Shown one piece after another: positions 23,021-54,737 of a stretch of DNA of 64,000 nucleotides. Below the pieces are notes generated by a model, which was given only the letters and a program-made list of their open reading frames with translations, ran no database searches and was not told the DNA's origin. Every line of letters begins with the position of its first letter. The first letter of the stretch is position 1. The position numbers and the translations under genes were made by a program. This DNA comes from Parcubacteria group bacterium (GTDB lineage: Bacteria > Patescibacteriota > Patescibacteriia > UBA11705 > JABHMO01), in contig JAZDPK010000048.1 of assembly GCA_043797615.1 (NCBI GenBank), positions 22 through 64,021 on the forward strand, in the 5' to 3' direction.

Positions 23021-23833
23021 ATGATCAATTTCTTGCATACATTTCATCCGCAGCCGGTTATTTTTCAAATCGGCATTTTCCCGATCCATTGGTATGGCTT
23101 TTTAATGGTGATCGGCGGGTTGCTTGGCCTGTTCGTTGTTTTGAAATTGGCGCGGCGTTACGGCGTCGATAAAAATTCGATTTACGATCTACTTGTTTAT
23201 TTCGTGGTTGGCGGCGTGGTCGGCGCGCGCGTTTATTACGTTGTTTACGCTTGGCAATTGTATCAGAACAATTGGCTCGATGTTTTTAAAATTTGGCAGG
23301 GCGGCTTGGCCGTGCACGGCGTGATGATCGGCGGAATGGCCGGAGTGCTGATTTATTATTTCTTTAAAAAAATAAACTTCTGGCTGTTCGCCGACTTGGC
23401 GGCGACCGGGCTGGCGGCGGCGCAGATCGTCGGCCGCGTTGGCAATTATTTCAATCAGGAAATTTTCGGCAAGCCGACGAATTTGCCGTGGGGAATATTG
23501 ATTGACGCGGCCGCTCGTCCAACTGAATTCTCCGGCGCGAATTATTTCCATCCGACTTTTTTGTACGAATCGCTCGGCAATGTCATTATCTTATGCGTTT
23601 TAATCGGATTGCATTTTCTCAAAATAAGAAACAAAACGCTTAAAGACGGAAATATTTTTTTCCTTTACATCATTTTGTACTCGATATTAAGATTTTTTTT
23701 GGAGTTTTTGCGAACGGATTACAGCCCGCTTGTCTTCGGCGTCCGCTGGGCGCAACTATTCAGCGCACTGTTAATCATTGCCGCCGCGGCGTTGTTAATC
23801 GCGAGAAACAGAAAGCGTTTTTTATTAAATTAA
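23021..23833 (+). CDS. lgt: prolipoprotein diacylglyceryl transferase
   Basis: 270 aa. IHWYGFLMVIGGLLG, WQGGLAVHGVMIGG, GRVGNYFNQEIFGKPTNLPWG. Confidence 0.92.
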   Translation: MINFLHTFHPQPVIFQIGIFPIHWYGFLMVIGGLLGLFVVLKLARRYGVDKNSIYDLLVYFVVGGVVGARVYYVVYAWQLYQNNWLDVFKIWQGGLAVHGVMIGGMAGVLIYYFFKKINFWLFADLAATGLAAAQIVGRVGNYFNQEIFGKPTNLPWGILIDAAARPTEFSGANYFHPTFLYESLGNVIILCVLIGLHFLKIRNKTLKDGNIFFLYIILYSILRFFLEFLRTDYSPLVFGVRWAQLFSALLIIAAAALLIARNRKRFLLN

Positions 23834-30907: not shown

Positions 30908-30936
30908 AGTAATTGTCAAAATTTATAAAAAATACT

Positions 30937-31851
30937 ATGTCAAACATTCATACGCCCGATTATCCGAAAGCGATCAAGCGCGAATGGCGCAAGCTTTTGG
31001 CCGTTACTCTGATCGTTCTCTTGCTCGCGCTCGTGGCGACTATTGTCCAGCCATTCAAATACAAGGCGGCGGAAAGCATTTTGATTTTGCAGAAATCCGG
31101 CTTCAGCATCGACGCTTACAGCGCGTCGAAGTCGGAGGATCGCATCGCCACGAAATTGTCCCAGGTGGTTTATTCCAGCTCGTTTCTTGATCAGGTTTTG
31201 AGCTCGGATTCGGCGATCGATGAAAATTATTTCTCCAGCGATGAAAAAAGCCGGCGCAAAGAATGGGCCAAAACCATTGCTGCCGACGTGCCGTCCGGAC
31301 TGGGCAAGCTGGTAATCGCGGTTTACCATACCGATCCGAATCAGGCCTTGCTCATATCGCGGGCCGTGGCTTATGAATTGACCAGCCGCAAGAGCGATTA
31401 CATCGGCATATCCGACGTTGATCTGCGGGTGATCGACGCGCCGCTCGTTTCCAAATTCCCGGTGCGCCCGAATATTTTTCTCAACATAATTTTGGGATTG
31501 GCCGCCGGCTTCATTATCGGAATAATTTACATCATCATCGGCTACAAGCCGGAGGATGAGAAGTATTTCCATTCGCCGAAGCTGTCCGACATCCATCCGC
31601 ACGTTGTCGATTACAACAAAATTCCGGAAACGGAAAGCGTTGAAAAAGACATTGCCAAAGCGCCGGAGATTGCGGAAATAGACGATTTGGATGAAATTGA
31701 AGAATTAGAAGAGTCCGTATCTGATGAAATTCCCGTGCCGAGCGTTTCGGACAGTTTTGAAAACAAGAGCGAAGAGCGGATTGAAATGAAAAAAGAATTG
31801 CCGAAATTCGATGATGAGGATCGGGTTATTGGGATGCCGGAAAGAATGTAA
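30937..31851 (+). CDS. Wzz/chain-length-determinant-like membrane protein
   Basis: ORF 30913..31851 trimmed to MSNIHTPDY. TM1 LLAVTLIVLLLALVATIV, then a periplasmic-type domain, then TM2 IFLNIILGLAAGFIIGIIYIIIGY, as in Wzz/CapA N-terminal domains. Acidic tail. Confidence 0.6.
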   Translation: MSNIHTPDYPKAIKREWRKLLAVTLIVLLLALVATIVQPFKYKAAESILILQKSGFSIDAYSASKSEDRIATKLSQVVYSSSFLDQVLSSDSAIDENYFSSDEKSRRKEWAKTIAADVPSGLGKLVIAVYHTDPNQALLISRAVAYELTSRKSDYIGISDVDLRVIDAPLVSKFPVRPNIFLNIILGLAAGFIIGIIYIIIGYKPEDEKYFHSPKLSDIHPHVVDYNKIPETESVEKDIAKAPEIAEIDDLDEIEELEESVSDEIPVPSVSDSFENKSEERIEMKKELPKFDDEDRVIGMPERM

Positions 31852-34141: not shown

Positions 34142-34705
34142 ATGAAAAAGTTAGCATGTTCTTTGATTTGTTTGAGTGTGTTCGTGGCGATTTCCGCCGA
34201 GGCCAAGAAGGAAGTCCAGACCATTCTGCTTCGCGTGCGCGTCAACGGCAAGGAGCAGAGCAAGGTTCTGGTTCCGCTGAAGGCCAACAAGCTTCAGCTC
34301 ACCATCAATCAGGCCGACGTCGGCAAGGCACTGAAAGCTAAGCCGGCCGAGCCCTGCAAGGACGCGGTCAAGAAGCCCGAACCGAAGGTCAAGGCTCCCG
34401 CCGCCCCCGCGCCCAGCGTGAAGGAAGAAGCAGCGCCGAGCGTGGAAGAGGATGGCGGGCTTGAAGGAATTCCGGACGATTCGTCGGAATCGGAATCAAG
34501 GAAAGAAAAGCGCTCCGATCTGGCGCCCGCTCCGGTAGCGCCGATTCCGACCGAGCCGCCGGCCAAGTGCGAATCTCACTTCTACGAGAAGTGGTGGTTC
34601 TGGACGATTGTCGGAGTCGTCGCCGGGAGCACCATCTGGAAAGTGGGCGACCACAACGGATGGTGGGACATACCGATCTATGACGGAAATCGCCGTCATC
34701 GGTAA
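34142..34705 (+). CDS. secreted/anchored hypothetical protein
   Basis: 187 aa, RBS taaggagga. Signal peptide MKKLACSLICLSVFVAISAEA, a Pro/Ala/Lys/Glu-rich linker, and a C-terminal Trp-rich TM segment WWFWTIVGVVAGSTIW. Confidence 0.7.
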   Translation: MKKLACSLICLSVFVAISAEAKKEVQTILLRVRVNGKEQSKVLVPLKANKLQLTINQADVGKALKAKPAEPCKDAVKKPEPKVKAPAAPAPSVKEEAAPSVEEDGGLEGIPDDSSESESRKEKRSDLAPAPVAPIPTEPPAKCESHFYEKWWFWTIVGVVAGSTIWKVGDHNGWWDIPIYDGNRRHR

Positions 34706-34859: not shown

Positions 34860-35963
34860 ATGAAGAAGGTAATGGAAAAACTGATCGTGAGTATGGTTCT
34901 GGTTCTGAGTTTGGTGGCTGGTTGCCGGTACGTGGACTTTCGGTCCAAGGACGCAACCGGGTATGGCCCGTGCGCCACCGATGCCAACTGCGATGCCGGG
35001 CTGATCTGCGCGTTGAACGTGCAGCAGACCGAACTCGTGTGCATGTCCGGCTGCCGCAATGACGCCATGTGCGGCGATCCCAGCAAGATCTGCGCGTATG
35101 ATTCCGACCTGGGTCGGGACATCTGCCAGACGGGATGTCGCGCTGATGCGACCTGTAACTATGATGAGCTGTGCATGAATGACAGCGACATCGGCTACAG
35201 CATTTGCGTGAAAGGGTGTTATCGCAACTCGCACTTCACCACACTGGACGAGACCACCACCAACCCCGACGGCACGACTGTTCATTCGGTGATCGTCACC
35301 GAACATCTGGACGTTGATTCGTGTCAGCGGAATGGGGACACCACCAAGGAATGCGACGAAACGAAGGATCCGTATGAGTGCGTGTCCAAAAATTCGCAGC
35401 AGGACGGCGGCGTGGCTCCGGTGGACGGCGGGTACACCCCTCCTCCTCCGGCGGTCGACGGCGGTTCTGCTCCGGTAGACGGCGGATACACTCCTCCGGC
35501 TGACGGTGGACAGGCTGCTGACGGCGGCGTGACTCCTGACGGCGGCGTGACCCAGGACGGTGGAGTGACGCAGGATGCCGGTGTTTTCACACCGACGACC
35601 TCTATCACCGCGCACATCTGTTGCCCCACAGGCAAGGAAGTAATACTATGGTGGGGTAATGCCGATGTCAATCACAGCCCGAACTCAAATGGGCAACCGT
35701 GCGGGGATTTCACCATGACGCTGGCCGGGGACAACAACTTTTGTTCCCGGGGAGCTCACCCCAACACGTCGGCAACGACAATGGAAGGCGGCTGGTTCAG
35801 CTACAACTGCCGTTCAGGATCTGACTACGGCGGCTGGGAGCAGTCAACAGTGACCACGGTGGTCGACCAAGCCGGTTCGCCGATGTCGTATTCGACACCT
35901 TTCAGAGCAACGACTTCGGCGAGCAATATCGCTGAAGTGGTAGTGGGAAACACCTGCTACTGA
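34860..35963 (+). CDS. Cys-rich lipoprotein, paralog 1 (shared C-terminal module)
   Basis: 367 aa. Signal plus lipobox LSLVAGC, three C..(N/A)D..C modules, a DGG-repeat linker (aa 182-241), and a C-terminal module ICCPTG...LWWG...FCSRGAHPN...GWFSYNC...AEVVVGNTCY. Confidence 0.8.
   Translation: MKKVMEKLIVSMVLVLSLVAGCRYVDFRSKDATGYGPCATDANCDAGLICALNVQQTELVCMSGCRNDAMCGDPSKICAYDSDLGRDICQTGCRADATCNYDELCMNDSDIGYSICVKGCYRNSHFTTLDETTTNPDGTTVHSVIVTEHLDVDSCQRNGDTTKECDETKDPYECVSKNSQQDGGVAPVDGGYTPPPPAVDGGSAPVDGGYTPPADGGQAADGGVTPDGGVTQDGGVTQDAGVFTPTTSITAHICCPTGKEVILWWGNADVNHSPNSNGQPCGDFTMTLAGDNNFCSRGAHPNTSATTMEGGWFSYNCRSGSDYGGWEQSTVTTVVDQAGSPMSYSTPFRATTSASNIAEVVVGNTCY
35403..35582 (+). repeat. in-frame DGG-unit tandem repeats (low-complexity linker)
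   Basis: Encodes DGGVAPVDGGYTPPPPAVDGGSAPVDGGYTPPADGGQAADGGVTPDGGVTQDGGVTQDAG. A similar linker occurs at about 37566-37665 in the 37311 gene. Confidence 0.8.
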
Positions 35964-35971
35964 TTTTCCGG

Positions 35972-36008
35972 GTCCCTTGTGTGAATCAACACAAGGGACT
36001 CTTTTATT
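35972..36008 (+). terminator. rho-independent terminator
   Basis: gtcccttgtgt (35972-35982) pairs with acacaagggac (35989-35999), followed by tcttttatttg. Confidence 0.7.
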
Positions 36009-36146
36009 TGCGAGGGAGGAACGACCGGAGCAATCTACTGCTTATGTTTTGAAGCAACCGAAGTAATCTTGACGGTTAAATCTTCCAAGATTGCGTCGCT
36101 CATATTTTCTATTATTTTTTATCGGGAAATTATCGCTCGCAAATAA
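36004..36146. repeat. TIR-bounded palindromic element, copy F1
   Basis: ttatttgcgag (36004-36014) and ctcgcaaataa (36136-36146) are exact reverse complements. Contains ccaagattgcgtcgct. Confidence 0.7.
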
Positions 36147-36163
36147 ATAAGCTTCGCATGGTG

Positions 36164-36192
36164 TTGACAAAAAAATTGTAAACGGCTAATAT
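36164..36192 (+). promoter_or_regulatory. sigma70-like promoter candidate
   Basis: TTGACA (36164-36169), 17 nt, TAATAT (36187-36192), 47 nt upstream of the 36239 ATG. Confidence 0.55.
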
Positions 36193-36238
36193 TTTATTGG
36201 TGAGTTAACGGTTTAGTTTTTTCAAAAGGAGAAAGACA

Positions 36239-36847
36239 ATGAAGAATCGGATTTTCGCGTTTGTCGGTTTGCTGATGTTTGTTTGTCTAGTATTGATCGG
36301 ATGCGGCTATCATCATCACTGCGATCGGAATCAAGTCTATGCTAATGGCCAGTGCCAGGTGAGTTGCGCGAATGATTACACCTGCATTCACGATGTTGAA
36401 GCCGGTCCGTCGTTCAAGTGCGACACGAATCTCGGTTATTGCGTTGAGAAAGAAACAAGGCCAGCAGTTCGCGACGGCGGCGTTCCGACTGTTGATGGCG
36501 GTTTTGAATCGGCAGTGCAAACGCGCATTTGCTGCCCGACCGGAACCGGCCAAGTGGAATTGTGGTACGGCAGTACGGCTCATGCGACTTCGTCCGGCGC
36601 ATCCTGTGAAAATTTCTGGATGCCCATGGCCGCATTCTGCCAACGCGGCGCCCATCCCAATTCGCTCGGTGGATGGTATACGTTTACATGTCATAATGGA
36701 GGCGGTTATTGGGGCGGATGGACAAGTGCGTCGGTTGTGTCCGTTACCAATCAAAATGGAAGTCCGTATTCTTATTCGGTGATCCGCGGCACGGTCAATA
36801 CCAGCGGGGTGGCAGAAGTGGTTGTTTACGGCACTTGCCAGCAGTGA
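36239..36847 (+). CDS. Cys-rich lipoprotein, paralog 2 (shared N- and C-terminal modules)
   Basis: 202 aa. Signal plus lipobox VLIGC, N-module CDRNQVYANGQCQVSCANDYTCIHDVEAGPSFKCDTNLGYCV, a short DGG linker, and C-module ICCPTG...LWYG...FCQRGAHPN...GWYTFTC...NTSGVAEVVVYGTCQQ. Confidence 0.8.
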   Translation: MKNRIFAFVGLLMFVCLVLIGCGYHHHCDRNQVYANGQCQVSCANDYTCIHDVEAGPSFKCDTNLGYCVEKETRPAVRDGGVPTVDGGFESAVQTRICCPTGTGQVELWYGSTAHATSSGASCENFWMPMAAFCQRGAHPNSLGGWYTFTCHNGGGYWGGWTSASVVSVTNQNGSPYSYSVIRGTVNTSGVAEVVVYGTCQQ

Positions 36848-36853
36848 TTTTCC

Positions 36854-36892
36854 AAGTTCCTTGGTGTCAACGACGCCGAGGAACTTTTTTAT
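36854..36892 (+). terminator. rho-independent terminator
   Basis: aagttcct (36854-36861) pairs with aggaactt (36879-36886), followed by TTTTTTATT. Confidence 0.6.
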
Positions 36893-36994
36893 TCGCAAGA
36901 AAAGCCGTAAAAGACAAATATGGCGATTAAATTTCAAGATTGCTTCGCTCTCATTACGCATTAAATTTCCTCTAAGATAATCGCTCGCAAATAA
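36889..36994. repeat. TIR-bounded palindromic element, copy F2
   Basis: ttattcgcaag (36889-36899) against ctcgcaaataa (36984-36994). Contains caagattgcttcgct. Confidence 0.6.
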
Positions 36995-37053
36995 ACGAGC
37001 TTCGCAGGAAAAACATGGCGGAAAAAGCAAATAAGGGAAAATTTGTTGAAAAC

Positions 37054-37082
37054 TTGACAATTTCTTTAATTTTGTATACAAT
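37054..37082 (+). promoter_or_regulatory. sigma70-like promoter candidate
   Basis: TTGACA (37054-37059), 17 nt, TACAAT (37077-37082). Implies a leader of about 220 nt before the 37311 ATG. Confidence 0.5.
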
Positions 37083-37310
37083 AGCATGTTAAATTGAAAA
37101 GGGCGGAAAAAGGCAGTATAAGGCGGAAAAGGGAAATGAATTTTTTTATCTTAATTTATACAATTTTTTATCAGTTTCAGCGGCACGGATATTTTTTTTC
37201 GCGCTTCTTAAATTGACGGAAAATTCTTTTCGTCGGTTCGTTGAAAATTCAAGAGAAAACGTTTTATTTTTTAACAGACCATAAAAAGGTCCAAAACAAG
37301 GAGGAAAGAG

Positions 37311-40300
37311 ATGAAGAAGTCAGTACTGGGTTTCGTGTTTCTGTGTTCGTGTCTGCTGTTCGCGGCGTGCGACGGCGGCAAAACCGGCTGCGGCAACCTT
37401 TGCGGACGCAACGAAGTCTGCGACAACGGTAGGTGCTATGTTCGTTGCACGAACGATTACACCTGCATCCATGACCTGGAAGCGGGCCCGTCGTTCGAGT
37501 GCGATTTGAACGCCGGCTACTGCGTGAAGCGCTCGTCTGTGCCGAATAACTATCCGACGGTTTCGTCCGATGGCGGTTTGGCGGTGGACGGCGGCGTTTC
37601 CCCGGATGGCGGATCGACAGTGGCTGACGGTGGAACGATTGATGCCGGGATTCCGGATGCCGGCTGGTCGCCTTGCGGTTTGACTGTTGAACAGATGCGG
37701 ACCGACGCGAATCATTGCGGCAATTGCGAAACCAAGTGCAATCTGCCGAACGCGACTTCAAAGTGCGTTGCCGGCGCCTGCGTCATTGACAAGTGCGAAG
37801 TCGGCAAGAAGGATTGCGACAACAATCCGGCGACCGGATGCGAATCTGATTCAGCCACCGACGTGAACAATTGTCGGACTTGCGGACGCGTTTGCGATTT
37901 TGAATTTTCCGGCGAGTTTTGCGATGACGGCATGTGCGTTCCCACGACCTGCAACCAAGACCGCGGCGAATGCAATCCGCATGACAGCGTTCCTTGCGAA
38001 ACCGAATTACCAAGCGACGTGGAAAACTGCGGACGGTGCGGACGGAGCTGTAACGATGTTTATCCGCATTCCATGACTTTTTGCCTCGACCGCACGTGCG
38101 AATGGGCGAATTGCCGGACTGGCTGGGGCGCTTGCAACGCGAATGTTCGCGGTTGCAACACCAACCTTTTCATTGACAACGCCAATTGCGGCGAGTGCGG
38201 GGCGAAGTGCGACATTCCGAACACATACGCCAACTGCGAAAGCGGCGCGTGCGTTCCGAGTCGCTGTAAAGAAGGTTTCGCGGATAGCGATAACAACCTG
38301 TTGAACGGTTGTGAAATCGATTTGCGGAACGACGTTCACAATTGCGGCTTTATCGATAACAGCTGCGAGGCGGCGAACGTGTCGGCGATGTGCATTAACG
38401 GCATGTGCGTGCGCACCGGCTGTGAAGGCGATTATGTCACTTGTCCGATGGACGCGGCGCAATGCGGCACGAATATTCGCATTGATTCCGACAACTGCGG
38501 CGGCTGCGGCATCCGTTGTTCCGCTTTGTATCCGAACATGGATACGACCTGCAACAACGCGGTGTGCATTCCGATCGCCTGTCTCGCGCCGTACATGGAT
38601 TGCCGATGGCAGCCCGGATGCGAGACCAACACCGATACGAATATGAATCATTGCGGCAACTGCGACGTGAAGTGCGAAAAGCTGAACGCCTACGCCACGT
38701 GCGAAGGCGGCGAGTGCATCGCTCTTCGTTGCAAGGAAGGTTTCGCGGACGCGGACAACAACTTGAATAACGGCTGCGAGATTGATCTTACGAAGGATTC
38801 TTTGAACTGCGGCCGACTCGATAATGATTGCGCGCGAACGAACGTCGCGACCATGTGCGTGAACGGATTCTGCACGCCGACCGGCTGCGACGCCAATTAC
38901 GCCACGTGTCCGACGAGCGCTTTGCTCTGCGATATTCATTTGTCGGTTGATACGGCGAATTGCGGCAGCTGCGGCTATAATTGCGAATCGGTTTATCCCG
39001 GTTCGAATGTGGCTTGCAACAATTCTCGCTGCGATTTCGTCAGCTGTAAAACCGGCAAGGGCGCGTGCGATCCGAATGCCCGCGGCTGCACCATTGATTT
39101 GCTTACGAACAACAGTCATTGCGGACAGTGCAACGCGAAGTGCGACATCCCGAATGTTTACGCCAACTGCGAAAGCGGAGCGTGCGTTCCGAGTCGTTGC
39201 AAAGAAGGTTTCGCGGACGCGGACAACAACCTGTTGAACGGCTGCGAGATCAATTTGCGCGAAGACTCGAACAACTGCGGCGAAGTCGGACACAACTGCG
39301 CGTTCACCAATGCTTCGAGCATGTGCGTGAACGGCATGTGCGTTCCGACCGGCTGCGACGCGGGCTACGCGACTTGTCCGTTGTCGTCGAACGTTACTTA
39401 TTGCGGCATCAATTTGACGACCGACGCGGCCAACTGCGGCAGCTGCGGTTATAACTGCGAATCGGTTTATCCGGGCATGGTTGTGACCTGCACTGACAGC
39501 GTTTGCGTTCCGACCGGCTGCAAGGACGGCAAGGCGGATTGCAAAGCGGCCCAGGCCGGTTGCGAAACGGACATCACGAACGACGATAACAACTGCAACG
39601 GTTGCGGCAATAAGTGCGTATTCACGAACGGCATTGGAGTTTGCCTGCTGGGGAGCTGCGCATTTGTCGGTTGCGAGCCCGGTTATTACGACCTCGACGG
39701 CTTGGCAAGCAACGGCTGCGAGATCGATTTGACCAAGGACTCGAACAACTGCGGCGAAGCCGGACACAATTGCGCGTTCACCAACGCTTCGAGCATGTGC
39801 GTGAACAGCGTTTGCGTTCCGACCGGCTGCGACGCGGGCTATGCCACTTGCGCGTCTTCGTCGAATCCGGCGTATTGCGCGACTTACTTGCCGACGGATA
39901 CAGCGAACTGCGGGAGTTGCGGTTACAACTGTGAAACGGTTTATCCGGGCATGGTGGTGACTTGCGCTGACAGCGTTTGCGTTCCGGTCGCCTGCAAGGA
40001 CGGCAAGGCGGATTGCAAAGCGGCCCATGCCGGTTGCGAAACCGATACCACCAGCGACGTGAATAACTGCGGCGGTTGCGGCATCAAGTGCGATCTGCCG
40101 AACGGCAATTCAGCGTGTGAAAACAGTCTGTGCGTGTTTAAGGGTTGTAATCCCGGTTTCGCCGATTGCGATCTAAATTTAATAAACGGATGTGAAGTCG
40201 ATTTGACGAGCAATGTGGCTTTTTGCGGACGCTGCACCAAATCGTGTTCTTTCGCCAACAGCGGCGCGGTTTGCACGGACGGGGTTTGCACTCCGACAAC

Positions 40301-40988
40301 GTGCGATCTGTGGACGGCGGATTGCGATGCCAACATGGCGACCAACGGCTGTGAAACCAACCTGCTCACCGACGCGAAGCATTGCGGCTCGTGCGCCACG
40401 GCGTGCGGGTTTGACAATGCCGGATCGGTTTGCACCAACGCCGTTTGCCAGATGGGTACGTGCAATGCCGGTTATCTGGATTGCAACGGCCGCCAGAATG
40501 ACGGTTGTGAAATCAATAAGATGACCGACCCGAACAATTGCGGGGTATGCGGCACGGTGTGCGGAAGCGGCAGTTCCTGCGTCAACGGCGTTTGCCAAGC
40601 AAGCGGAACGCCGGGAACGCCTTTGCCGGCAGTGACTTCCATCACTTGCAGCATCTGCTGTCCGACCGGACTCGGTTCGCCCGTGGTTTGGTATGGAGCC
40701 GGACCGCCCGACACCATGACTTGGACACCGGCAAGCGGCGGTTCATGCGGCATTCTAGTGATGCAAGCGGGAACGTTCTGCAAGCGCGGTCTGCATCCGA
40801 CTTACAGCGCGGCGTTCAGCGGTTGGTTTACATACAACTGCAACGCCACCTGGAGCGGAGCGACGGCGAACGATGTTTCCACTTGCGTTGATCAAAATGG
40901 CAACGCGCTCACGTTCCACGACATTGCCGGAGTGGTCAATACCAGCGGCGTGCGTGAAGTGGCGATCGAGCAAACTTGCCATGAATAA
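37311..40988 (+). CDS. giant Cys-rich repeat lipoprotein, paralog 3
   Basis: 1225 aa, RBS aaggagga. Signal with Cys (LLFAAC), the same N-module as paralog 2 (CGRNEVCDNGRCYVRCTNDYTCIHDLEAGPSFECDLNAGYCV), a DGG linker, about 19 units of D..NCG.CG..C...C..G.C....C..G..DC....NGCE, and the shared C-module ICCPTG...VWYG...FCKRGLHP...GWFTYNC...NTSGVREVAIEQTCHE. Confidence 0.85.
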   Translation: MKKSVLGFVFLCSCLLFAACDGGKTGCGNLCGRNEVCDNGRCYVRCTNDYTCIHDLEAGPSFECDLNAGYCVKRSSVPNNYPTVSSDGGLAVDGGVSPDGGSTVADGGTIDAGIPDAGWSPCGLTVEQMRTDANHCGNCETKCNLPNATSKCVAGACVIDKCEVGKKDCDNNPATGCESDSATDVNNCRTCGRVCDFEFSGEFCDDGMCVPTTCNQDRGECNPHDSVPCETELPSDVENCGRCGRSCNDVYPHSMTFCLDRTCEWANCRTGWGACNANVRGCNTNLFIDNANCGECGAKCDIPNTYANCESGACVPSRCKEGFADSDNNLLNGCEIDLRNDVHNCGFIDNSCEAANVSAMCINGMCVRTGCEGDYVTCPMDAAQCGTNIRIDSDNCGGCGIRCSALYPNMDTTCNNAVCIPIACLAPYMDCRWQPGCETNTDTNMNHCGNCDVKCEKLNAYATCEGGECIALRCKEGFADADNNLNNGCEIDLTKDSLNCGRLDNDCARTNVATMCVNGFCTPTGCDANYATCPTSALLCDIHLSVDTANCGSCGYNCESVYPGSNVACNNSRCDFVSCKTGKGACDPNARGCTIDLLTNNSHCGQCNAKCDIPNVYANCESGACVPSRCKEGFADADNNLLNGCEINLREDSNNCGEVGHNCAFTNASSMCVNGMCVPTGCDAGYATCPLSSNVTYCGINLTTDAANCGSCGYNCESVYPGMVVTCTDSVCVPTGCKDGKADCKAAQAGCETDITNDDNNCNGCGNKCVFTNGIGVCLLGSCAFVGCEPGYYDLDGLASNGCEIDLTKDSNNCGEAGHNCAFTNASSMCVNSVCVPTGCDAGYATCASSSNPAYCATYLPTDTANCGSCGYNCETVYPGMVVTCADSVCVPVACKDGKADCKAAHAGCETDTTSDVNNCGGCGIKCDLPNGNSACENSLCVFKGCNPGFADCDLNLINGCEVDLTSNVAFCGRCTKSCSFANSGAVCTDGVCTPTTCDLWTADCDANMATNGCETNLLTDAKHCGSCATACGFDNAGSVCTNAVCQMGTCNAGYLDCNGRQNDGCEINKMTDPNNCGVCGTVCGSGSSCVNGVCQASGTPGTPLPAVTSITCSICCPTGLGSPVVWYGAGPPDTMTWTPASGGSCGILVMQAGTFCKRGLHPTYSAAFSGWFTYNCNATWSGATANDVSTCVDQNGNALTFHDIAGVVNTSGVREVAIEQTCHE
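38304..40184 (+). repeat. four tandem in-frame super-repeats (465, 468, 474, 474 nt)
   Basis: Each unit starts at NGCE(I)(D/N)L: 38304, 38769, 39237, 39711. The next NGCEVDL starts at 40185. Each holds three Cys-rich sub-units. The last two copies are closely similar over 158 aa. Confidence 0.85.
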
Positions 40989-41001: not shown

Positions 41002-41038
41002 AAGATGGATATTGCCGAGCAGTATCCATCTTTTATTT
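41002..41038 (+). terminator. rho-independent terminator
   Basis: aagatggata (41002-41011) pairs with tatccatctt (41023-41032), followed by ttatttt. Confidence 0.7.
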
Positions 41039-41204
41039 TAGAAGTGAGAAGTGAGATGTTGGAAGTCAGAATAATTTCACAAGAAGTCTTTCCAACCTCC
41101 CACATCCCACCTCCAAAATAGTGGATAAAGAAGATGCCAAATTGTTTTTCGCGTTAATTCATGATATATTAAAATCAAACGAATTCAGCCAAATTCAAAA
41201 TTTT

Positions 41205-42206
41205 ATGATTAAAAAAAATAAGATCAAAATGCCGAAAGACGCGGTGGTGGCGGTGACTTACCGCTGCAATTCGCGTTGCATCATGTGCAATATTTGGCAA
41301 ATCAAAGATTTTCCGGAAATGCCGGCCGAAGCTTATCGAAAATTGCCGAAAAGCTTGAAGTATATCAATATCAGCGGCGGCGAGCCGTTCTTGCGCAACG
41401 ACTTGGTTGAAATTGTTAAAGTTATTAAAGAAACTTGTCCGAAAGCGAATATAAACATTTCTACCAACGGTTTTTTAGTCGACACGATCAAGCGCGTTTT
41501 GCCGGAGATAAAAAAAGTTTATCCGAAAATAGAAATTTCAATCTCCGTGGACGGCATCGGGCAGATGCACGAGCAAGTGCGGCGAGTTGAAAATGCTTGG
41601 CCGAAAGTCGTGGAAACGATCAGATTCTGCCGCGACATTTTGAAAATAAAAGAAACCAGATTGGCGTTCACGATCAACAAGGAAAATTATCGCCAGCTGG
41701 GTTTGGCGCACGAATGGAGCAAAAAGCTGGGCGTGCAATTCACCGCGGCGATGATTCATTCGTCCGACATTTATTTCAGCAAGGAAAATTCGCTGGAAGG
41801 GGTGGATATGGAACATTTGAATAAGGAATTTGATTACGTGATAGGCGAGCTGATAAAGTCGAATCGGCCGACGGACTTGGCCAAGGCGTATTTTGTTCAC
41901 GGTTTGTATTTGGTGGCGAAGGGCGAGCGCCGGCCGCTGGAATCGTTCGCCGGCGAAGATTTTTTCTATTTGGATCCGAAAGGAGATATTTATCCTTCGG
42001 TCGTTGATAACATTATCATGGGCAATATTACCGAACCGGAAACGTTTGAACAAATTTGGTGTTCAAAACAGGCGGATGAGGCGAGAGAAGCGGTCAAAGG
42101 ATTAAACGGAAATTACTGGATGGTGTGTACGGCCAGGACGGCATATTTGCGCAATCCGCTGAAGGTGGCAAAGTGGATATTTACACGCAAATTGGGGATA
42201 AAATAA
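41205..42206 (+). CDS. radical SAM protein
   Basis: ORF 41121 (GTG)..42206, with the first in-frame ATG at 41205. CxxxCxxC cluster VTYRCNSRCIMCNIW, then ISGGEPFLR. The start codon is uncertain. Confidence 0.8.
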   Translation: MIKKNKIKMPKDAVVAVTYRCNSRCIMCNIWQIKDFPEMPAEAYRKLPKSLKYINISGGEPFLRNDLVEIVKVIKETCPKANINISTNGFLVDTIKRVLPEIKKVYPKIEISISVDGIGQMHEQVRRVENAWPKVVETIRFCRDILKIKETRLAFTINKENYRQLGLAHEWSKKLGVQFTAAMIHSSDIYFSKENSLEGVDMEHLNKEFDYVIGELIKSNRPTDLAKAYFVHGLYLVAKGERRPLESFAGEDFFYLDPKGDIYPSVVDNIIMGNITEPETFEQIWCSKQADEAREAVKGLNGNYWMVCTARTAYLRNPLKVAKWIFTRKLGIK

Positions 42207-42311: not shown

Positions 42312-43709
42312 ATGCTTCATAAAATAAAAGAACTGTTTACCTCGAACGAACCGCACCAGCTGATTAAATTGTTGGCGATTGTGTTGGCGACAATGGCGGT
42401 TTTCAGTTTGATCGGCGTTAACTTGATGAATGTCGAATACGTGCTGGCGGTTGATTTGATTATTTTCATTTTGACGCTGTTTGTCAGATTCATAAACTTT
42501 GGATTTTACGCCCTGGTTTTCTTTTACCCTTTCGTGGGCTGGCAGCTTTTCTACGCCAAATTCGACGCGCCGTACGTTGATCTCGTCGCCATGCTGCTTT
42601 TGGCCGCGTATTTGATCAGATTGATCGTCGGGTTGGAAAAGAAGGAAAAAATTTTCAGCTGGAAGAATTTTCCCGGCGTTGTTTTCGCCGCGCTGTTTTT
42701 CATCGCCAGCGCGTTGTCCTTGTTTAATACCGATTACACTTTGACAATGTCGTCGCTGAAATATCTAGTCCGGCCGATTATATTTTTTTACGTGATGTTC
42801 GTGCTTTTGCCGTTCAACCTGATTAAAGATAAAAAAACGTTGCAAAACGCTTTGAAGATAATCTTGTTCGACGGCGCGATCGTTTCGCTCATCGGCATTC
42901 TGGCGGTGTCCGCGAGCAACGTCGCCTGGTATTTGCGCCGGGCCATTCCGTTTTCTTTCGGCAATTTCGATCCGCTCGGCGGCAATCAGAACGCCATTGC
43001 CGAAGCCTTGGCCGTGGCCATACCGTGCGCATTGATCTTGTTTATCCTGGCAAAAACGATCCGCGCCAAAAATTGGTATTTGGTTTCAACGATGATAATG
43101 ACTTTGGTTTTGATTTTGACTTTCTCCCTCGCCGGCTGGCTGGCTTTATTTCTGGAAATTTTAATATTATTCTTTGTTAAATTCTGGCATAAGTTCGAAA
43201 AGACAACGCTGATTCTCATTGTCCTGGCGTTGATCGTGATTCCGGCCGCGTTTTATTTCACGGTGTGGCACAATCTGGATTTTCTGCAGGCGTCGAACGC
43301 CAACCGCATCATGATGACGAAAATCGCGGCATACAGCTTTGCCCAGCATCCGATCATCGGCAACGGCTTGAACAGTTTTCAGCGGATACTCGGTTCGACG
43401 TTCACTTACACCGTCGAGTTCGCCGATCCGCTGGATTCGCACGGCTTTGTGCAAAAAATTCTGACTGAGTCCGGCATTTTGGGCTTTGTCAGCTTTATGG
43501 TACTTCTGGGTTATTTGTGGAAACGATATTTGAAAGCGTATATCGCGGCCAAGCGCTTGCCGATTAACAGCGATGTGATTTTGCTCTTCATCGCCATGTT
43601 CAGCGGCATCATCGCGTTCGAGCTTTTTTCCACGTCGTATTTCATCGCGAAAACCTGGCTGCCGATCGGGATCGGGCTGATCGGGGTTAAATTATATTCG
43701 GAATATTGA
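42312..43709 (+). CDS. O-antigen ligase/polymerase-like (Wzy_C family) membrane protein
   Basis: 465 aa, about 11-12 TM helices. HPIIGNGLNSFQ and DSHGFVQKILTESGILGF resemble the conserved Wzy_C loop. Confidence 0.75.
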   Translation: MLHKIKELFTSNEPHQLIKLLAIVLATMAVFSLIGVNLMNVEYVLAVDLIIFILTLFVRFINFGFYALVFFYPFVGWQLFYAKFDAPYVDLVAMLLLAAYLIRLIVGLEKKEKIFSWKNFPGVVFAALFFIASALSLFNTDYTLTMSSLKYLVRPIIFFYVMFVLLPFNLIKDKKTLQNALKIILFDGAIVSLIGILAVSASNVAWYLRRAIPFSFGNFDPLGGNQNAIAEALAVAIPCALILFILAKTIRAKNWYLVSTMIMTLVLILTFSLAGWLALFLEILILFFVKFWHKFEKTTLILIVLALIVIPAAFYFTVWHNLDFLQASNANRIMMTKIAAYSFAQHPIIGNGLNSFQRILGSTFTYTVEFADPLDSHGFVQKILTESGILGFVSFMVLLGYLWKRYLKAYIAAKRLPINSDVILLFIAMFSGIIAFELFSTSYFIAKTWLPIGIGLIGVKLYSEY

Positions 43710-47449: not shown

Positions 47450-47453
47450 AAAT

Positions 47454-49022: not shown

Positions 49023-49025
49023 AAT

Positions 49026-51949: not shown

Positions 51950-53038
51950 ATGATAAAAATCATTTACATCATCGGCCGCCTGTCCGTCGGCGGCGCGGAA
52001 AAGCTGCTGCTGGATTTTTGCCGGAAAATAAACAAAGACGAATTCGACGTTTCCGTCGTAGTCCTGCAAAACGACAATCCGCTGGCGTCGCAATTCGAAG
52101 AAGCCGGAGTTAAACTGAAATTTTTTCACAAAAGAAGCAAGCGCGATTTCAAAGTCGTCAATCAATTGGCGGAATATTTGCAAACGGAAAAGCCGGACAT
52201 CGTGCACACCCATCTTTTTACCGCGGATTTTTTCGGCGGCAAGGCGGCGCTCAAGGCGAAAGTGCCGGTCATCATTTCAACGCGCCATCAGATCTTGAGC
52301 GAAGGCTTTCCGCGCAAGCAATTAAGCCGGCGCATGCGGCGCAAGTTTACGAAGGTGGTCGCGATTTCCGAAGCCGTGCGCTCCGCTTTAATCAAGGAAG
52401 AAAAACTACCGTTTGAAAAAGTCGAGCTGATATACAACGGCATCGACGTCAACCGATTTTATATCGAATCGCCGAAGCTTTTCAAAACCGACGGCTTGAA
52501 AATCTGTTCAGTCGGAAGATTGTCCAAGGAAAAAGGGCACAAACATCTGATCCGCGCCTGCTGTTTTCTTAAGAATAAAGATTGGCATCTGACGATCGTC
52601 GGAGACGGGCCGCTGCGCGCTGAATTGGCAAGCATGGCGCGCCTGCTCGGGGTCGAGGACAAGGTTAAATTCGCCGGCCTGGTCGAAGACGTGCGGCCTT
52701 ATTACGAAGATTGCGACATATTTGTTCTGCCTTCGACGAGCGAAGGGCTTAGCCTCGTGATTTTGGAAGCGGCCGCGGCCGGCAGAGTAGTGGTCGCAAC
52801 AAACGTCGGAGGAGTGGGCGAAATCATTAAAGACAATGAAAACGGCTTCTTATTCAAGCCGAAGAACATCGAGCAGCTGGTGCGCCAGATCAATTGGATC
52901 GACGAAAACCGCGAAGAAGCGAAGAAAATGGCCGAGCGCTTGCAAAAGGAAGCGGCGGAGAGATTCGACGTGAATGCGATTATTAAGAAATATGAAGAAC
53001 TTTATAAAAAATTGAAGAAAGAGGTGGTAAAGGTGTAA
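51950..53038 (+). CDS. glycosyltransferase, GT4 family
   Basis: 362 aa. GRLSVGGAEKLL at the N-terminus. FVLPSTSEGLSLVILEAAAAGRVVVATNVGGVGEII (the E-x7-E region). Confidence 0.85.
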   Translation: MIKIIYIIGRLSVGGAEKLLLDFCRKINKDEFDVSVVVLQNDNPLASQFEEAGVKLKFFHKRSKRDFKVVNQLAEYLQTEKPDIVHTHLFTADFFGGKAALKAKVPVIISTRHQILSEGFPRKQLSRRMRRKFTKVVAISEAVRSALIKEEKLPFEKVELIYNGIDVNRFYIESPKLFKTDGLKICSVGRLSKEKGHKHLIRACCFLKNKDWHLTIVGDGPLRAELASMARLLGVEDKVKFAGLVEDVRPYYEDCDIFVLPSTSEGLSLVILEAAAAGRVVVATNVGGVGEIIKDNENGFLFKPKNIEQLVRQINWIDENREEAKKMAERLQKEAAERFDVNAIIKKYEELYKKLKKEVVKV

Positions 53039-53164
53039 GAAGTGAAAACAAGGAGGGAGAAGGGGGCTAAAGGAGATTATGCAGAAGTGGGCAGAGTGGG
53101 AGAGGTGAGAAGGGTGGGAAAGGTGGAAAATAACTAATGAATATTATTCTGAAGCTAGTTAAGT

Positions 53165-53320
53165 TTATTTGCGAGCCCATGCCTGTAAGTTAATTCACGT
53201 TTAGAAGCATAGCGACGCAATCTTGGATTATTGTCTCAAGCGTTCATGATGGTCGCAAAGAAGATTGCTTCGCTGTCGTGAGAAAATATTCAATTTCGCT
53301 TGATATGGGTTCGCAAATAA
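53165..53320. repeat. TIR-bounded palindromic element, copy F3
   Basis: ttatttgcgag (53165-53175) against ttcgcaaataa (53310-53320). Nested pair agcgacgcaatcttgg / aagattgcttcgct. Confidence 0.65.
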
Positions 53321-53382
53321 AGACTTGGCTATTTCGCTTGAATACCGTGTTAATTAGTCATAGGTAATTTGTCATAAACTTT

Positions 53383-54606
53383 ATGAAGGTTCTATTGATC
53401 AACAAGTTCCATTATCTTAAGGGCGGCAGCGAACGCGTCTATCTGGAAACGAAAAAGCTGCTGGAGCAGAACGGCCACGAGGTGATTTGTTTCTCCATGA
53501 AAGACAAGCGCAATTTGCCGTGCGAACAGGAGAGATATTTTATTGAAAATTTCGATTTGACTACGCGAAAGCATTGGTTTAAAGCGTTCCACTATCTTTA
53601 TTACCGCAAGGCGGCGCGCCAATTGGAACAATTGATTGTCGCGGAAAAGCCGGACATCGCGCATCTGCACAATATAACGCATCATTTGACCCCGTCCATT
53701 TTAAAGCCGCTGAAAAAGCACGGCATTCCGATCGTCCACACTCTGCACGATTACAGCCTGATCTGCCCGAATTACCGCTTGTTCACGCAGGGAAAAGTCT
53801 GCGAACGCTGTTATAAACATAAATATTATCAAGCCATGTTCCATAAATGTGTGCGAAACGAGTTTTTACCGAGTGTTTTGGCGGCGATGGAATTAAAGTT
53901 GCAATGGCTGTTCAAATATTACAAAGAAAAAGTGGATTTATTCATCTCGCCGAGCGAGTTTCTTAAATCAAAATTGGCTGAGTGGGGAGTGAAGCAGCCG
54001 ATCGAAGTGATAAATAATTTTTTGGAAATAGAAAAATTCGAGCCGGATTACACTCCGGGCGATTATGTCGTGTGCGCCAGCCGATTGAGCAATGAAAAAG
54101 GCGTGATGACGCTGGTTAAAGCAATGGAAAAACTTCCGGAGATTAAGTTGAAATTGATCGGCGAAGGCCCGCAAAAAAATGAAATTGAAAATTACATCGC
54201 TAAGCATAAAATCAAAAACATCGAGATGCTCGGCGCCAAATACGGCAGCGAATTGTTCGATCTGATAAAAAAATCGCGCTTCTTCGTCATTCCGTCCGAT
54301 TGGTACGAGAATTATCCGCTGTTTCCGATCGAAGCCCTGGCCCTCGGCAAGCCGGTTTTGGCCGCGAAAATCGGCGGACTGGCGGAAATAGTCGCGGAAA
54401 ACCGCAACGGCTGGTTTTACAAACCTGGAGACGCCAAGGATTTGCGCGAGAAAATAAACGCGCATTATTCCGACTTGCAGGAAATCGTCTGTCTCGGACA
54501 GAACGCGAGGAAAACGGTTGAACAAATAAATTGTTCAAAAGTTTATTATGACAAGCTGATGAAGTGTTATGAAAGGCTTTTGGATCAGAAGATGAAGATG
54601 GGGTAG
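53383..54606 (+). CDS. glycosyltransferase, GT4 family
   Basis: 407 aa. LINKFHYLKGGSERVY at the N-terminus. FVIPSDWYENYPLFPIEALALGKPVLAAKIGGLAEIV. Confidence 0.85.
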   Translation: MKVLLINKFHYLKGGSERVYLETKKLLEQNGHEVICFSMKDKRNLPCEQERYFIENFDLTTRKHWFKAFHYLYYRKAARQLEQLIVAEKPDIAHLHNITHHLTPSILKPLKKHGIPIVHTLHDYSLICPNYRLFTQGKVCERCYKHKYYQAMFHKCVRNEFLPSVLAAMELKLQWLFKYYKEKVDLFISPSEFLKSKLAEWGVKQPIEVINNFLEIEKFEPDYTPGDYVVCASRLSNEKGVMTLVKAMEKLPEIKLKLIGEGPQKNEIENYIAKHKIKNIEMLGAKYGSELFDLIKKSRFFVIPSDWYENYPLFPIEALALGKPVLAAKIGGLAEIVAENRNGWFYKPGDAKDLREKINAHYSDLQEIVCLGQNARKTVEQINCSKVYYDKLMKCYERLLDQKMKMG

Positions 54607-54607
54607 G

Positions 54608-54660
54608 GAAAGTTGATAGGTTTATTGGTTTATCCCGAAGGGATCCCTTTGGGATTTGCT
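54608..54660. repeat. gttgata-word element, copy 3, core in inverted orientation
   Basis: gaaagttgataggtttattggtttatcccgaagggatccctttgggatttgct. The core approximates the reverse complement of the core in copies 1 and 2, while the gaaagttgata flank keeps its orientation. Confidence 0.65.
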
Positions 54661-54737
54661 GATCATTGTGTTATTTGGATTTTGGGCTTTGAGTTTGTTT
54701 AGTATTTAGTTATTAGAATTTAGAGTTTAAATTTTTT

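Follow-up and report, generated by a model that had tools for sequence, protein, structure and literature searches.

Three predicted lipoproteins of a CPR bacterium share a conserved C-terminal domain beside an envelope-glycan gene cluster

Bacteria of the CPR (Patescibacteria) make up a large and almost wholly uncultured share of bacterial diversity; it is through their surfaces that they lead an obligate cell-to-cell lifestyle, and their envelope proteins are almost all without assigned domains. In a stretch of 64,000 nucleotides from one such bacterium (the window), three consecutive genes for Cys-rich proteins, designated p1, p2, and p3, lie upstream of glycan genes. An initial annotation had read them as paralogous lipoproteins displaying one end-domain on stalks of different length, possibly as adhesins. 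The question raised by this locus is whether the three proteins indeed share a domain, and what such a domain may do beside glycan genes. The features are listed in Table 1.

Table 1. Positions of the lipoprotein genes, their parts, and neighbouring features in the window.
Feature	Position	Strand	Description
Lgt	23021..23833	+	Prolipoprotein diacylglyceryl transferase, lipobox-modification machinery (PF01790, E 2.6e-69)
HtrA-like protease	29636-30736		
Wzz-like protein	30913..31851	+	Chain-length determinant, upstream edge of the locus
Small envelope protein	33315-34013	+	N-terminal TM segment, Lys-rich tail
Small envelope protein	34142-34705	+	Signal peptide, acidic Pro-rich region, C-terminal TM segment
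p1	34860..35963	+	Predicted lipoprotein, 367 aa: signal peptide, lipobox VAGC, A-type-like Cys-rich head, DGG/TP linker, C-type end-module
p1 linker	35427..35597	+	Asp/Gly/Pro/Thr, 21-bp and 18-bp tandem repeats (DGGVTQ units)
p1 C-terminal module	35598..35960	+	Without the optional fourth Cys pair
Hairpin directly 3' of p1	35970..36001	+	Terminator-like, 13-bp stem, then T-run
p2	36239..36847	+	Predicted lipoprotein, 202 aa: lipobox LIGC, N-module, DGG linker, C-module, without stalk
p2 N-module	36305..36454	+	Six Cys, kept in all canonical family members
p2 C-terminal module	36512..36844	+	
Hairpin directly 3' of p2	36854..36886	+	Terminator-like, 15-bp stem
p3	37311..40988	+	Predicted lipoprotein, 1,225 aa: lipobox FAAC, N-module, DGG linker, ~980-aa Cys-rich repeat stalk, C-module
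p3 N-module	37371..37535	+	
p3 stalk	37686..40628	+	~20 units of ~52 aa (NCGxCGxxC...GCE), MXAN_6577-like
p3 C-terminal module	40629..40985	+	Fourth Cys pair present, like most relatives
Hairpin between p3 and radical SAM gene	41002..41032	+	Terminator-like, 14-bp stem
Radical SAM enzyme	41121..42206	+	SPASM/twitch-like C-terminal domain; probable true start 41205 (Pfam)
Wzy_C membrane protein	42312..43709	+	O-antigen ligase/polymerase-like
Rest of glycan cluster	51950..56789	+	GT4 51950-53038, GT4 53383-54606, GHL15 + FG-GAP protein 54738-56789

Open reading frames for all three proteins were present at exactly the positions claimed, and the claimed limits of the C-terminal modules were likewise correct, corresponding in the HMM alignment to residues 247-366 of p1, 91-201 of p2, and 1108-1224 of p3. 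The module, common to all three C-termini, comprises about 115 residues, and the alignment of its copies contained 29 invariant columns, with identities of 38-47%. Paralogy at the C-terminus was borne out by pairwise BLASTP, performed with SEG masking and composition-based statistics (E = 1.9e-27, 2.5e-17, and 5.4e-21), and by Smith-Waterman scores 24-34 s.d. above those of 500 residue shuffles, so that the similarity is not low-complexity noise. The initial annotation had staked the family beforehand on significance surviving the masking of low complexity, and it did survive. The six cysteines described as conserved were invariant across the three modules (C8, C9, C35, C49, C71, and C120 in p1-module numbering). 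A fourth Cys pair was all-or-none: it was present in 13 of 16 modules, while both cysteines were missing in p1, p2, and the relative P0002. In all cases, the module ended 0-3 residues before the C-terminus. Long antisense ORFs within p1 and p3 (e.g., 38007-40028, 673 aa) were rejected as composition artefacts.

Outside the module, the three proteins differ. The N-module common to p2 and p3 was confirmed (46% identity over 99 aa, E 2e-22) and was found directly after the lipobox Cys in all canonical relatives. The Cys-rich head of p1 is unrelated to this N-module and resembles an A-type lipoprotein from related loci, residues 87-166 matching that of locus L009 with 38% identity over 84 aa (E 3e-7). 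p3 thus has the canonical form of the family, p2 has this form minus the stalk, and p1 is chimeric, its head being of another kind. The layout ascribed to all three, with a DGG linker ahead of the C-module, held for p1 and p2; in p3, the linker was located at residues ~85-118, after the N-module. Stalks had been put at 90-1100 residues, whereas the measured spacers between lipobox Cys and module amounted to 224 residues in p1, 68 in p2, and 1,087 in p3.

The stalk of p3 contains a 474-bp tandem duplication at 39237-40207 (TRF) and shares its disulfide-rich NCGxCG...GCE repeat with MXAN_6577-like proteins (NF041328). That model matched p3 in nine stretches, in the stalk only (145.2 bits against a cut-off of 100, E 1.2e-42). 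The match ended at residue 1096, before the end-module, p1 and p2 gave no match, and to our knowledge, the NF041328 family has no established function; the model thus explains the p3 stalk and not the end-module. Values of dN/dS for the end-domain ranged from 0.06 to 0.31 and were below one everywhere; the end-domain is under purifying selection. Within the protein, conservation resides in this domain and variability in the stalk.

An exhaustive HMMER search of 1.84 billion cluster representatives yielded at least about 10 true members, all of them Cys-rich CPR proteins with the module at the C-terminus, the full-length ones also carrying a lipobox and N-module. This size is a lower bound because the default bias filter of HMMER discarded long Cys-rich proteins that are true members and that a run with --max brought back. 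A k-mer-indexed protein search was poorly suited to the census (two matches, then one). Peptide patterns for the module derived from the window returned nothing in genome, metagenome, or viral collections because they were too lineage-specific, and the broad alignment of 16 sequences was too divergent for a metagenome pattern scan; loci were recovered by anchoring on the radical SAM gene and by sub-family alignment. Modules in these loci were 23-50% identical to those of the window, and the radical SAM enzymes of the same loci 56-70% identical. The three modules of the window grouped as one clade, which indicates a lineage-specific expansion.

Across the family, stalks ranged from 0 to ~1,700 residues of Cys-rich repeats. 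The C-termini of B-type lipoproteins were found to be distant homologues of the module (HHalign 95.6%, E 1.3e-8), while those of A-type lipoproteins were rejected as such (HHalign probability < 1%, homology not detectable). With GyrB 75-78% identical to that of Falkowbacteria/Kuenenbacteria, and with a syntenic locus, the window is assigned to the CPR, near these groups. The earlier supposition of a host that may live attached is thereby upheld, as the window belongs to the CPR, for which life in attachment to other cells is generally assumed.

The prediction of export and of a lipobox also stood for all three proteins, with the modified residue at Cys22 (p1, VAGC), Cys22 (p2, LIGC), and Cys20 (p3, FAAC). 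Lipoproteins were predicted by a PROSITE PS51257-type rule, i.e., K/R within the first 7 residues, an h-region without charged residues, Cys at position 15-35, and the lipobox pattern [LIVMFWSTAG]2-[LIVMFYSTAGCQ]-[AGS]-C; the strict rule was matched by 17 of 20 family proteins, p3 being included in this count. Lgt is encoded in the window (Table 1), and LspA was not seen within it. The number of cysteines following the lipid-modified one was even in each case (22, 12, and 158 in p1, p2, and p3, respectively), which, together with the extracytoplasmic location, points to structural disulfides rather than free thiols.

The statement that the module fits no named family was confirmed. With 16 members, Pfam gave nothing at E ≤ 10 apart from noise; whole p1, p2, and p3 matched no Pfam family at E ≤ 1; no NCBIfam or PHROG match covered the module; and a profile search of the PDB with the module gave nothing at E ≤ 10. 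No literature specific to the module, the locus, or MXAN_6577 was found. Structure prediction with AlphaFold was run with 12 sequences and modelled the module as an eight-stranded beta-sandwich (pLDDT 84.7, pTM 0.80, all five models ≥ 80). Foldseek returned no significant neighbour for this model, the best matches having E 0.12 with TM ≤ 0.36 in the PDB and E 0.017 with TM ≤ 0.45 in BFVD. Weak matches of the first model to galectins, a CBM, and the BclA lectin (E 0.1-0.9, TM < 0.4) did not recur with the better model; no Foldseek match to a lectin or CBM that would back glycan binding was obtained, only weak matches to generic sandwiches (E ≥ 0.1, TM < 0.4).

The gene order radical SAM, Wzy_C, GT4, GT4, GHL15/FG-GAP is conserved as an envelope-glycan cluster; in the window, a defence island sits between Wzy_C and the GT4-GT4-GHL15/FG-GAP part. 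A module gene was located immediately upstream of the radical SAM gene in all nine informative loci found via the module (L002-L004, L051-L056). Among the 11 close-clade loci found via the radical SAM gene, a C-type module gene stood directly upstream of it in eight; L013 has a B-type lipoprotein in this place, the upstream lipoproteins of A- and B-type in L012 are separated from it by one further gene, and L006 is without upstream sequence. Genes similar in architecture to the two small envelope proteins are found at corresponding positions in L003, L009, and L033, as judged by eye and with no significant BLAST match. Where these glycan genes occur in more distant loci, the slot holds unrelated secreted proteins or none, which indicates that the glycan pathway can do without these lipoproteins. 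A separate promoter-like site and a strong terminator hairpin accompany each paralog, one of the hairpins lying between p3 and the radical SAM gene, so co-transcription with the glycan genes is not indicated. The conserved adjacency could simply be gene order inherited within one clade.

The reading that we tentatively prefer is that the three genes encode envelope lipoproteins that present, at three heights, a conserved domain which probably binds glycan. The proteins would be Sec-exported, diacylglycerol-anchored, and fully disulfide-bonded. They follow a fixed family plan, in which a lipobox is followed by a six-Cys N-module, a variable Cys-rich rod, and, at the extreme C-terminus, the predicted beta-sandwich of ~115 aa with three to four disulfides, and they fill a 'surface-protein slot' between Wzz and the radical SAM-Wzy_C-GT4-GT4-GHL15/FG-GAP cluster. 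The end-domain, copied in the lineage of the window, would now be displayed at three distances from the membrane anchor (68, 224, and 1,087 residues), the short spacer of p2 keeping it near the membrane. It may act as a binding module for a conserved ligand, most likely the surface glycan from the adjacent cluster. In this way the proteins might tether or organise the glycan polymer at defined envelope heights, by the logic of SLH domains and secondary cell-wall polymers; the long p3 could additionally contact a partner cell.

SLH-domain S-layer proteins likewise carry a constant binding module, and their genes lie beside those making the secondary cell-wall polymer that serves as ligand. This parallel would be a functional analogy only, with no similarity in sequence or fold. 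Unlike in SLH proteins, the anchor is a predicted N-terminal lipid, the constant module is C-terminal and disulfide-rich, and its binding is putative.

That the three are host-cell adhesins, in which the constant end-domain, carried outward by a lipid-anchored stalk, binds a receptor of the host surface, is possible but rather doubtful. Membership in the CPR, relatives with very long stalks of rigid Cys-rich repeats, and the evolution of stalk length through tandem duplication would all suit such a function, as would the finding that p2 gains amino-acid changes ~6x faster than the p1 tail (dN 0.29-0.34 vs. 0.05). However, it is the distal domain that is conserved, across lineages with presumably different hosts, and the stalk that varies instead, with dN/dS nowhere reaching one. 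The spacers of p2 and p1 are unlikely to extend past the cell's own wall, that of p2, with 68 residues, being too short for contact with another cell, and an adhesin model does not predict that the genes stay strictly linked to the glycan locus of their own cell. For p3, a role as host adhesin is plausible.

Attachment has also been proposed in print as a possible use of large exported Cys-rich CPR proteins, described in Peregrinibacteria/Peribacteria (Anantharaman et al. 2016, PMC4736985), and the novelty is narrower by this much than the initial annotation assumed. As far as that account describes them, those proteins agree with the present ones in that they belong to CPR bacteria, have signal peptides and many Cys, are large and encoded in clusters, weakly resemble Myxococcus Cys-rich repeats, and have a proposed role at the surface or in attachment. 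They belong to another CPR lineage, whereas the present ones come from relatives of Falkowbacteria/Kuenenbacteria. Compared by description, the parts of that account considered here contain neither a defined plan with an unnamed C-terminal domain nor the fixed radical SAM-Wzy_C-GT linkage.

It is improbable that the lipoproteins are substrates of their neighbours, the radical SAM/SPASM enzyme modifying the Cys-rich proteins ahead of their export (e.g., by a thioether cross-link), or the Wzy_C protein attaching glycan as an O-oligosaccharyltransferase or ligase, with the C-module or the DGG/TP linkers as recognition element, like a C-terminal sorting or attachment tag. The module gene invariably adjoins the radical SAM and Wzy_C genes, the module keeps its place at the C-terminus, the linkers are Thr/Pro-rich, and some Wzy_C-family members, among them PglL and PilO, are protein O-OTases. 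The radical SAM enzyme matched the Pfam SPASM model marginally (24 bits against a cut-off of 21.5) and resembled TIGR04133 'rSAM_w_lipo' (radical SAM/SPASM) weakly over its full length (E 9e-11, far under the cut-off of that model). Against this, no evidence of glycosylation sequons was obtained, a terminator hairpin separates p3 from the radical SAM gene, and the enzyme stayed below the cut-off of every NCBIfam model (best 68 bits, cut-offs 170-650). The two auxiliary clusters of a full SPASM domain call for about 7 additional Cys; the 6-8 Cys in total are too few for these plus the radical SAM cluster, and the enzyme looks twitch-like, as sugar-modifying enzymes do.

In addition, the radical SAM family occurs without Cys-rich lipoproteins in more distant CPR, Euryarchaeota, and Krumholzibacteria, where it adjoins or is fused with glycosyltransferases (GT2-radical SAM fusion ORFs of 611-627 aa in L014, L020, L021, and L030). 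The enzyme is therefore probably no maturase of these lipoproteins, and its candidacy as a dedicated maturase of Cys-rich proteins was down-weighted. The exclusive maturase-substrate pairing of RiPP-like precursors (SCIFF, ranthipeptide, QhpC-type) was not found, nor were the full SPASM domain and a score above a curated family cut-off that mark RiPP-like maturases.

We also regard it as improbable that the C-module is an attachment or recognition tag, to which the neighbouring Wzy_C protein joins the glycan of the cluster covalently or which docks on that glycan non-covalently. The known counterpart would be the T9SS C-terminal domain of Bacteroidota, a beta-sandwich of ~100 aa found at the C-terminus of cargo of very different length and linked to glycan (A-LPS) attachment. 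The likeness would again be a functional analogy only: the module matched no CTD model in Pfam or NCBIfam, the window proteins, unlike T9SS cargo, also have a predicted N-terminal lipid anchor, and we know of no outer membrane or T9SS in CPR bacteria. If the tag reading were true, the proteins would form a scaffold of lipid-anchored glycoproteins whose heights are defined (68, 224, and 1,087 residues), a CPR-specific envelope assembly functionally parallel to T9SS-CTD/A-LPS or SLH/SCWP and unrelated to them in sequence and fold.

A metal-binding or redox-buffering role in the envelope, after the NCBI name 'putative metal-binding motif-containing protein', is very improbable, since this name, given to relatives with MopE-like PF11617 CDGxDNDCDG repeats in their stalks (P0004, P0008, P0010, and P0011), stems only from a stalk element unrelated to the C-module and absent from p1, p2, and p3 (no PF11617 match at E ≤ 1), and since the very high Cys content (13% in p3) is attributed above to structural disulfides.

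The significance of the preferred reading, a probably glycan-binding domain shown at three heights, is limited in that the family is very small, the function is inferential, and Cys-rich exported CPR proteins had, as a general phenomenon, already been published. What is added is a compact domain (~115 aa, 3-4 disulfides) whose fold is predicted with confidence, a clear three-part protein architecture, and a tie to one glycan locus. Attention is also drawn to an uncharacterised radical SAM enzyme which, across the CPR and in some archaea, is linked to glycosyltransferases or fused with them. The module may serve as a domain for binding tests and as a marker for an envelope gene cluster in Falkowbacteria/Kuenenbacteria-like genomes.

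The three Cys-rich lipoproteins of the initial annotation (p1, p2 and p3) were all recovered as open reading frames at the positions listed in the table. The shared C-terminal module (end-domain) proposed for them was also borne out: their last ~115 residues aligned at 38–47% identity with 29 invariant columns, six of them Cys, and every reported motif was found (ICCPTG, W.G, FC.RG.HP, GW, Q.G and EV...TC). Low-complexity masking, under which the similarity might have vanished, left it significant. Pairwise E-values with SEG masking and composition-based statistics were 1.9e-27, 2.5e-17 and 5.4e-21, and Smith-Waterman scores lay 24–34 s.d. above residue shuffles; a composition rich in Cys and Gly therefore does not account for it.

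Coordinates and assignments of the features considered (for each defence-island gene, the position given is that of the whole island)
Feature	Position	Strand	Remark
p1, 367 aa	34860-35963	+	ORF present
p2, 202 aa	36239-36847	+	ORF present
p3, 1,225 aa	37311-40988	+	ORF present
Strong hairpin + T-run	35970-36001		Directly after p1 stop codon
Strong hairpin + T-run	36854-36886		Directly after p2 stop codon
Strong hairpin + T-run	41002-41032		Directly after p3 stop codon
Antisense ORF, 301 aa	34710-35615	-	Within p1
Antisense ORF, 673 aa	38007-40028	-	Within p3
Small envelope protein	33315-34013		N-terminal TM segment, coiled coil, Lys-rich tail; before lipoproteins
Signal-peptide protein	34142-34705		Acidic Pro/Ala-rich region, C-terminal Gly-rich TM segment, W..D..G motif
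Radical SAM enzyme (rSAM)	41121-42206	+	
Wzy_C	42312-43709		
NYN nuclease	43809-51920		Defence island
Bro-N/PDC-S13	43809-51920		Defence island; E 1e-132
Type I methyltransferase	43809-51920		Defence island; E 7e-293
Schlafen/AlbA_2 ATPase-like protein	43809-51920		Defence island
AbiU2	43809-51920		Defence island
Unknown ORF	43809-51920		Defence island
Type I specificity (S) subunit	43809-51920		Defence island
ORF, 622 aa	57267-59135		3' of glycan cluster
Lgt	23021-23833		Encoded in window itself
tmRNA	26474-26859	-	
gyrB, prfA, tmRNA, tRNA-Asp, dnaK, FtsW/RodA, L25	Window		Bacterial chromosome segment

The predicted lipoboxes were upheld by the PROSITE lipoprotein rule in all three N-termini (Cys22 in p1 and p2, Cys20 in p3). 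The 6-Cys N-terminal module (N-module) common to p2 and p3 was likewise confirmed, the two copies being 46% identical across 99 aa (E 2e-22). The number of Cys left after the lipid-modified one was even in each case (22 in p1, 12 in p2 and 158 in p3), as expected if every remaining Cys were disulfide-bonded. By these predictions, p1, p2 and p3 are exported, disulfide-rich proteins of the lipid-anchor type.

Some details had to be corrected. The Asp/Gly/Pro (DGG) linker of p3, placed earlier before the C-terminal module, lies after the N-module; the spacers between anchor and module, given as 90 to 1100 residues, measured 224 (p1), 68 (p2) and 1,087 (p3); and the Cys-rich head of p1 differs from the N-module of p2 and p3. 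Protein p3 is a canonical C-type protein, the module-bearing class of related loci, and p2 is a p3-type protein without a stalk, consisting of N-module, DGG linker and module. In p1, a head resembling A-type lipoproteins is joined to a p2-like module, residues 87-166 sharing 38% identity with the A-type lipoprotein encoded at related locus L009 (E 3e-7). In sequence comparison, conservation is confined to the end-domain and the N-module, whereas the stalk varies. Stalk and linker are changing in length through tandem duplication: the p3 stalk contains two copies of a 474-bp unit, and 18-bp and 21-bp units occur in the linker of p1.

A promoter-like site precedes each gene and a terminator-like hairpin follows each; p1, p2 and p3 are probably separate transcription units. 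Long antisense ORFs in p1 and p3 were rejected as genes, being artefacts of GC-rich Cys/Gly/Asp codon usage; the same artefact was present at related locus L012.

The initial annotation had found no named family for the module, and the database searches gave the same outcome. Pfam gave no match to p1, p2 or p3 at E ≤ 1 and noise alone for 16 family modules at E ≤ 10, and PHROGs and PDB profile searches of the module gave no match. The sole NCBIfam match, MXAN_6577-like NF041328 in the p3 stalk (145 bits vs a cut-off of 100), stops short of the module. AlphaFold2 modelling from a 12-sequence alignment yielded an eight-stranded all-beta domain (pLDDT 84.7, pTM 0.80), with five of five models mutually consistent at pLDDT 80 or above; an earlier model from four sequences had reached pLDDT 80. 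Foldseek returned no significant neighbour in the PDB (best E 0.12, TM ≤ 0.36, mostly immunoglobulin domains) or BFVD (best E 0.017, TM ≤ 0.45), and the first module model gave weak matches alone, to galectin, CBM and lectin sandwiches. The modelled, conserved beta-sandwich lies at the opposite end of the protein from the anchor. An extra Cys pair, one member before 'ICC' and the other in 'VLsCVD', occurs in 13 of the 16 family modules, both members being missing in p1, p2 and P0002 (the p2 orthologue of a relative), the all-or-none pattern that a disulfide pair would give. Among the invariant residues of the module are W18, those of the stretch R51-G-x-H/Y-P55, W66 and E113. On sequence evidence, the module constitutes a domain family that is genuinely unassigned.

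An exhaustive HMMER census of 1.84 billion cluster representatives gave 17 matches, of which ~10 were genuine, a lower bound because some long members rich in Cys are lost to the HMMER bias filter. The other matches, unrelated repeat proteins aligned over short stretches, were discarded. A sub-family-alignment pattern scan of 241 million metagenome records added six further loci only. All genuine census members are Cys-rich proteins that end in the module. Those of full length (P0004, P0008 and P0011) start with a lipobox, next to which stands the 6-Cys N-module known from p2 and p3; their stalks of 200-1,700 residues consist of MopE-like CDGxDNDCDG and NCGxCG units. The sole NCBI name of one full-length member is 'putative metal-binding motif-containing protein [Patescibacteria group bacterium]'.

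The window's three modules and P0002 grouped as one clade when 16 modules were placed in a neighbour-joining tree, and represent a lineage-specific expansion. On L001, a Logan contig of 1 kb whose source organism is related, a p1 tail (93% identical) precedes the p2 orthologue (62%), and the tandem arrangement is therefore older than the split of the two lineages. Between window and L001, dS was ~0.7-1.1. The p1 tail had a dN of 0.05 (dN/dS 0.06), and p2 a dN of 0.29-0.34 (dN/dS 0.26-0.31). These ratios indicate purifying selection on both, more relaxed on p2. P0002 (L001 383-988), from this closest relative, shows a lipobox too degenerate (GFFDCGC) to pass rule PS51257; secretion of the protein without a lipid anchor, or an error in the low-coverage contig, may account for this.

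The first three foreign contigs each have an rSAM gene (63-68% identical to the window's) directly after the module gene, and where the sequence extends, Wzy_C comes next (46%). An rSAM-anchored search of representative genomes gave 46 loci; the 11 with 56-70% rSAM identity were all CPR. The close-clade order was Wzz, a small N-terminal-TM protein, a signal plus C-terminal-TM protein, an A-type lipoprotein (~270 aa), a B-type Cys-rich lipoprotein (370-1,080 aa), the C-type lipoprotein with module, rSAM, Wzy_C, sometimes a methyltransferase, two GT4 genes, and a GHL15 + FG-GAP protein.

The lipoprotein slot was surveyed with HMMER filters off, the grouping covering loci with upstream sequence. 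The C-type gene lay directly 5' of rSAM in 8/11 close-clade loci; L013 has a B-type lipoprotein alone there, and L012 has A- and B-type lipoproteins with one further gene intervening. All six loci found through the module alone had the same downstream cluster. The C-termini of B-type lipoproteins are distantly homologous to the module (HHalign 95.6%, E 1.3e-8), and no homology was found for A-type C-termini by HHalign. Across lineages, the lipoprotein genes are, by sequence comparison, locked to one glycan locus, with proteins diverged to 23-50% identity.

The C-type gene is split into overlapping or adjacent ORFs in two MAGs (L008 4144-7125/6876-9710; L009 5063-7069/7092-9371), which could be a frameshift, a repetitive-stalk assembly error or a pseudogene. 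Eight TPA assemblies (L008, L010, L011, L021, L025, L027, L032, L033) are titled 'uncultured Gammaproteobacteria bacterium'; they carry a CPR-type locus with genes 38-70% identical, and the label, which several of the 11 close-clade loci bear, is probably wrong. Genes of like architecture to the two envelope-type genes 5' of p1 occupy the same position in L003, L009 and L033, with sequence similarity below BLAST detection. The 622-aa ORF, with a sub-threshold DUF11 match alone (E 8e-4), may be another surface protein.

The window's cluster is interrupted between Wzy_C and the first GT4 by an ~8-kb defence island of low GC (31-39%). HsdR was not seen in it, and the corresponding position in relatives is either empty or taken by a 234-aa methyltransferase. 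Two separate DNA methyltransferase-like genes occur in the 64-kb window (8021-9136 and 45401-47449), one resembling Alw26I/Eco31I-type or PglX-type enzymes and the other type I, a density that suggests heavy restriction-modification/defence investment for a small genome.

GyrB of the window reached at most 78% identity to any database protein, the best named relatives being Candidatus Falkowbacteria and Kuenenbacteria, then other Patescibacteria. Locus-level relatives agree, and the host is therefore a CPR bacterium; judged by these genes, the 185,579-species representative set does not include it. The tmRNA tag peptide, AKKLVSNVKAFFTMPAFATVAA, exceeds the common ANDENYALAA type in length and does not resemble it.

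As to function, the end-domain would bind a conserved ligand, tentatively the surface glycan made by the neighbouring cluster. SLH domains, which bind their cell-wall polymer, offer an analogy. The glycan is favoured because of the strict locus linkage, the conservation of the domain and its display at 68, 224 and 1,087 residues from the membrane. A host adhesin is a less likely alternative overall, though a reasonable one for p3 and other long forms. It matches a suggestion published for other Cys-rich CPR proteins (PMC4736985), but contact with another cell is not plausible for the two shorter forms.

Modification of the lipoproteins by the neighbouring rSAM or Wzy_C enzymes is improbable. 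No NCBIfam model scored the rSAM anywhere near its cut-off (best 68 bits vs 170-650). Its family at ~40% identity spans other CPR, Euryarchaeota and one Krumholzibacteria MAG; nearly all these loci have a glycosyltransferase directly after or flanking rSAM, and L014, L020, L021 and L030 encode an rSAM-GT2 fusion in a single 611-627-aa ORF. No Cys-rich lipoproteins were found in them, the interval after Wzz holding 0-4 unrelated secreted proteins or lipoproteins. The 6-8 Cys of rSAM would suffice for the radical SAM cluster and at most one auxiliary cluster. The enzyme, which is twitch/SPASM-like, is probably sugar- or glycan-modifying. A role as maturase of the lipoproteins was disfavoured by the glycosyltransferase linkage and fusion, the lipoprotein-less loci and the few Cys; the lipoproteins are probably not its substrates. 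A metal-binding role is very improbable, its sole basis being a stalk motif lacking in the window proteins.

CPR proteins that are large, exported and Cys-rich, contain Myxococcus-like repeats and are proposed to act in attachment have already been published (PMC4736985). No earlier description of the defined architecture and locus linkage was found in the literature, and both appear undescribed. The significance is limited, as the family is tiny, its function inferential and unassigned domains abundant in CPR genomes; the descriptive findings are far more secure than the glycan-binding mechanism. Because rSAM-glycosyltransferase loci elsewhere lack them, the Cys-rich lipoproteins would be occupants of a variable 'surface-protein slot' in a conserved envelope-glycan locus.
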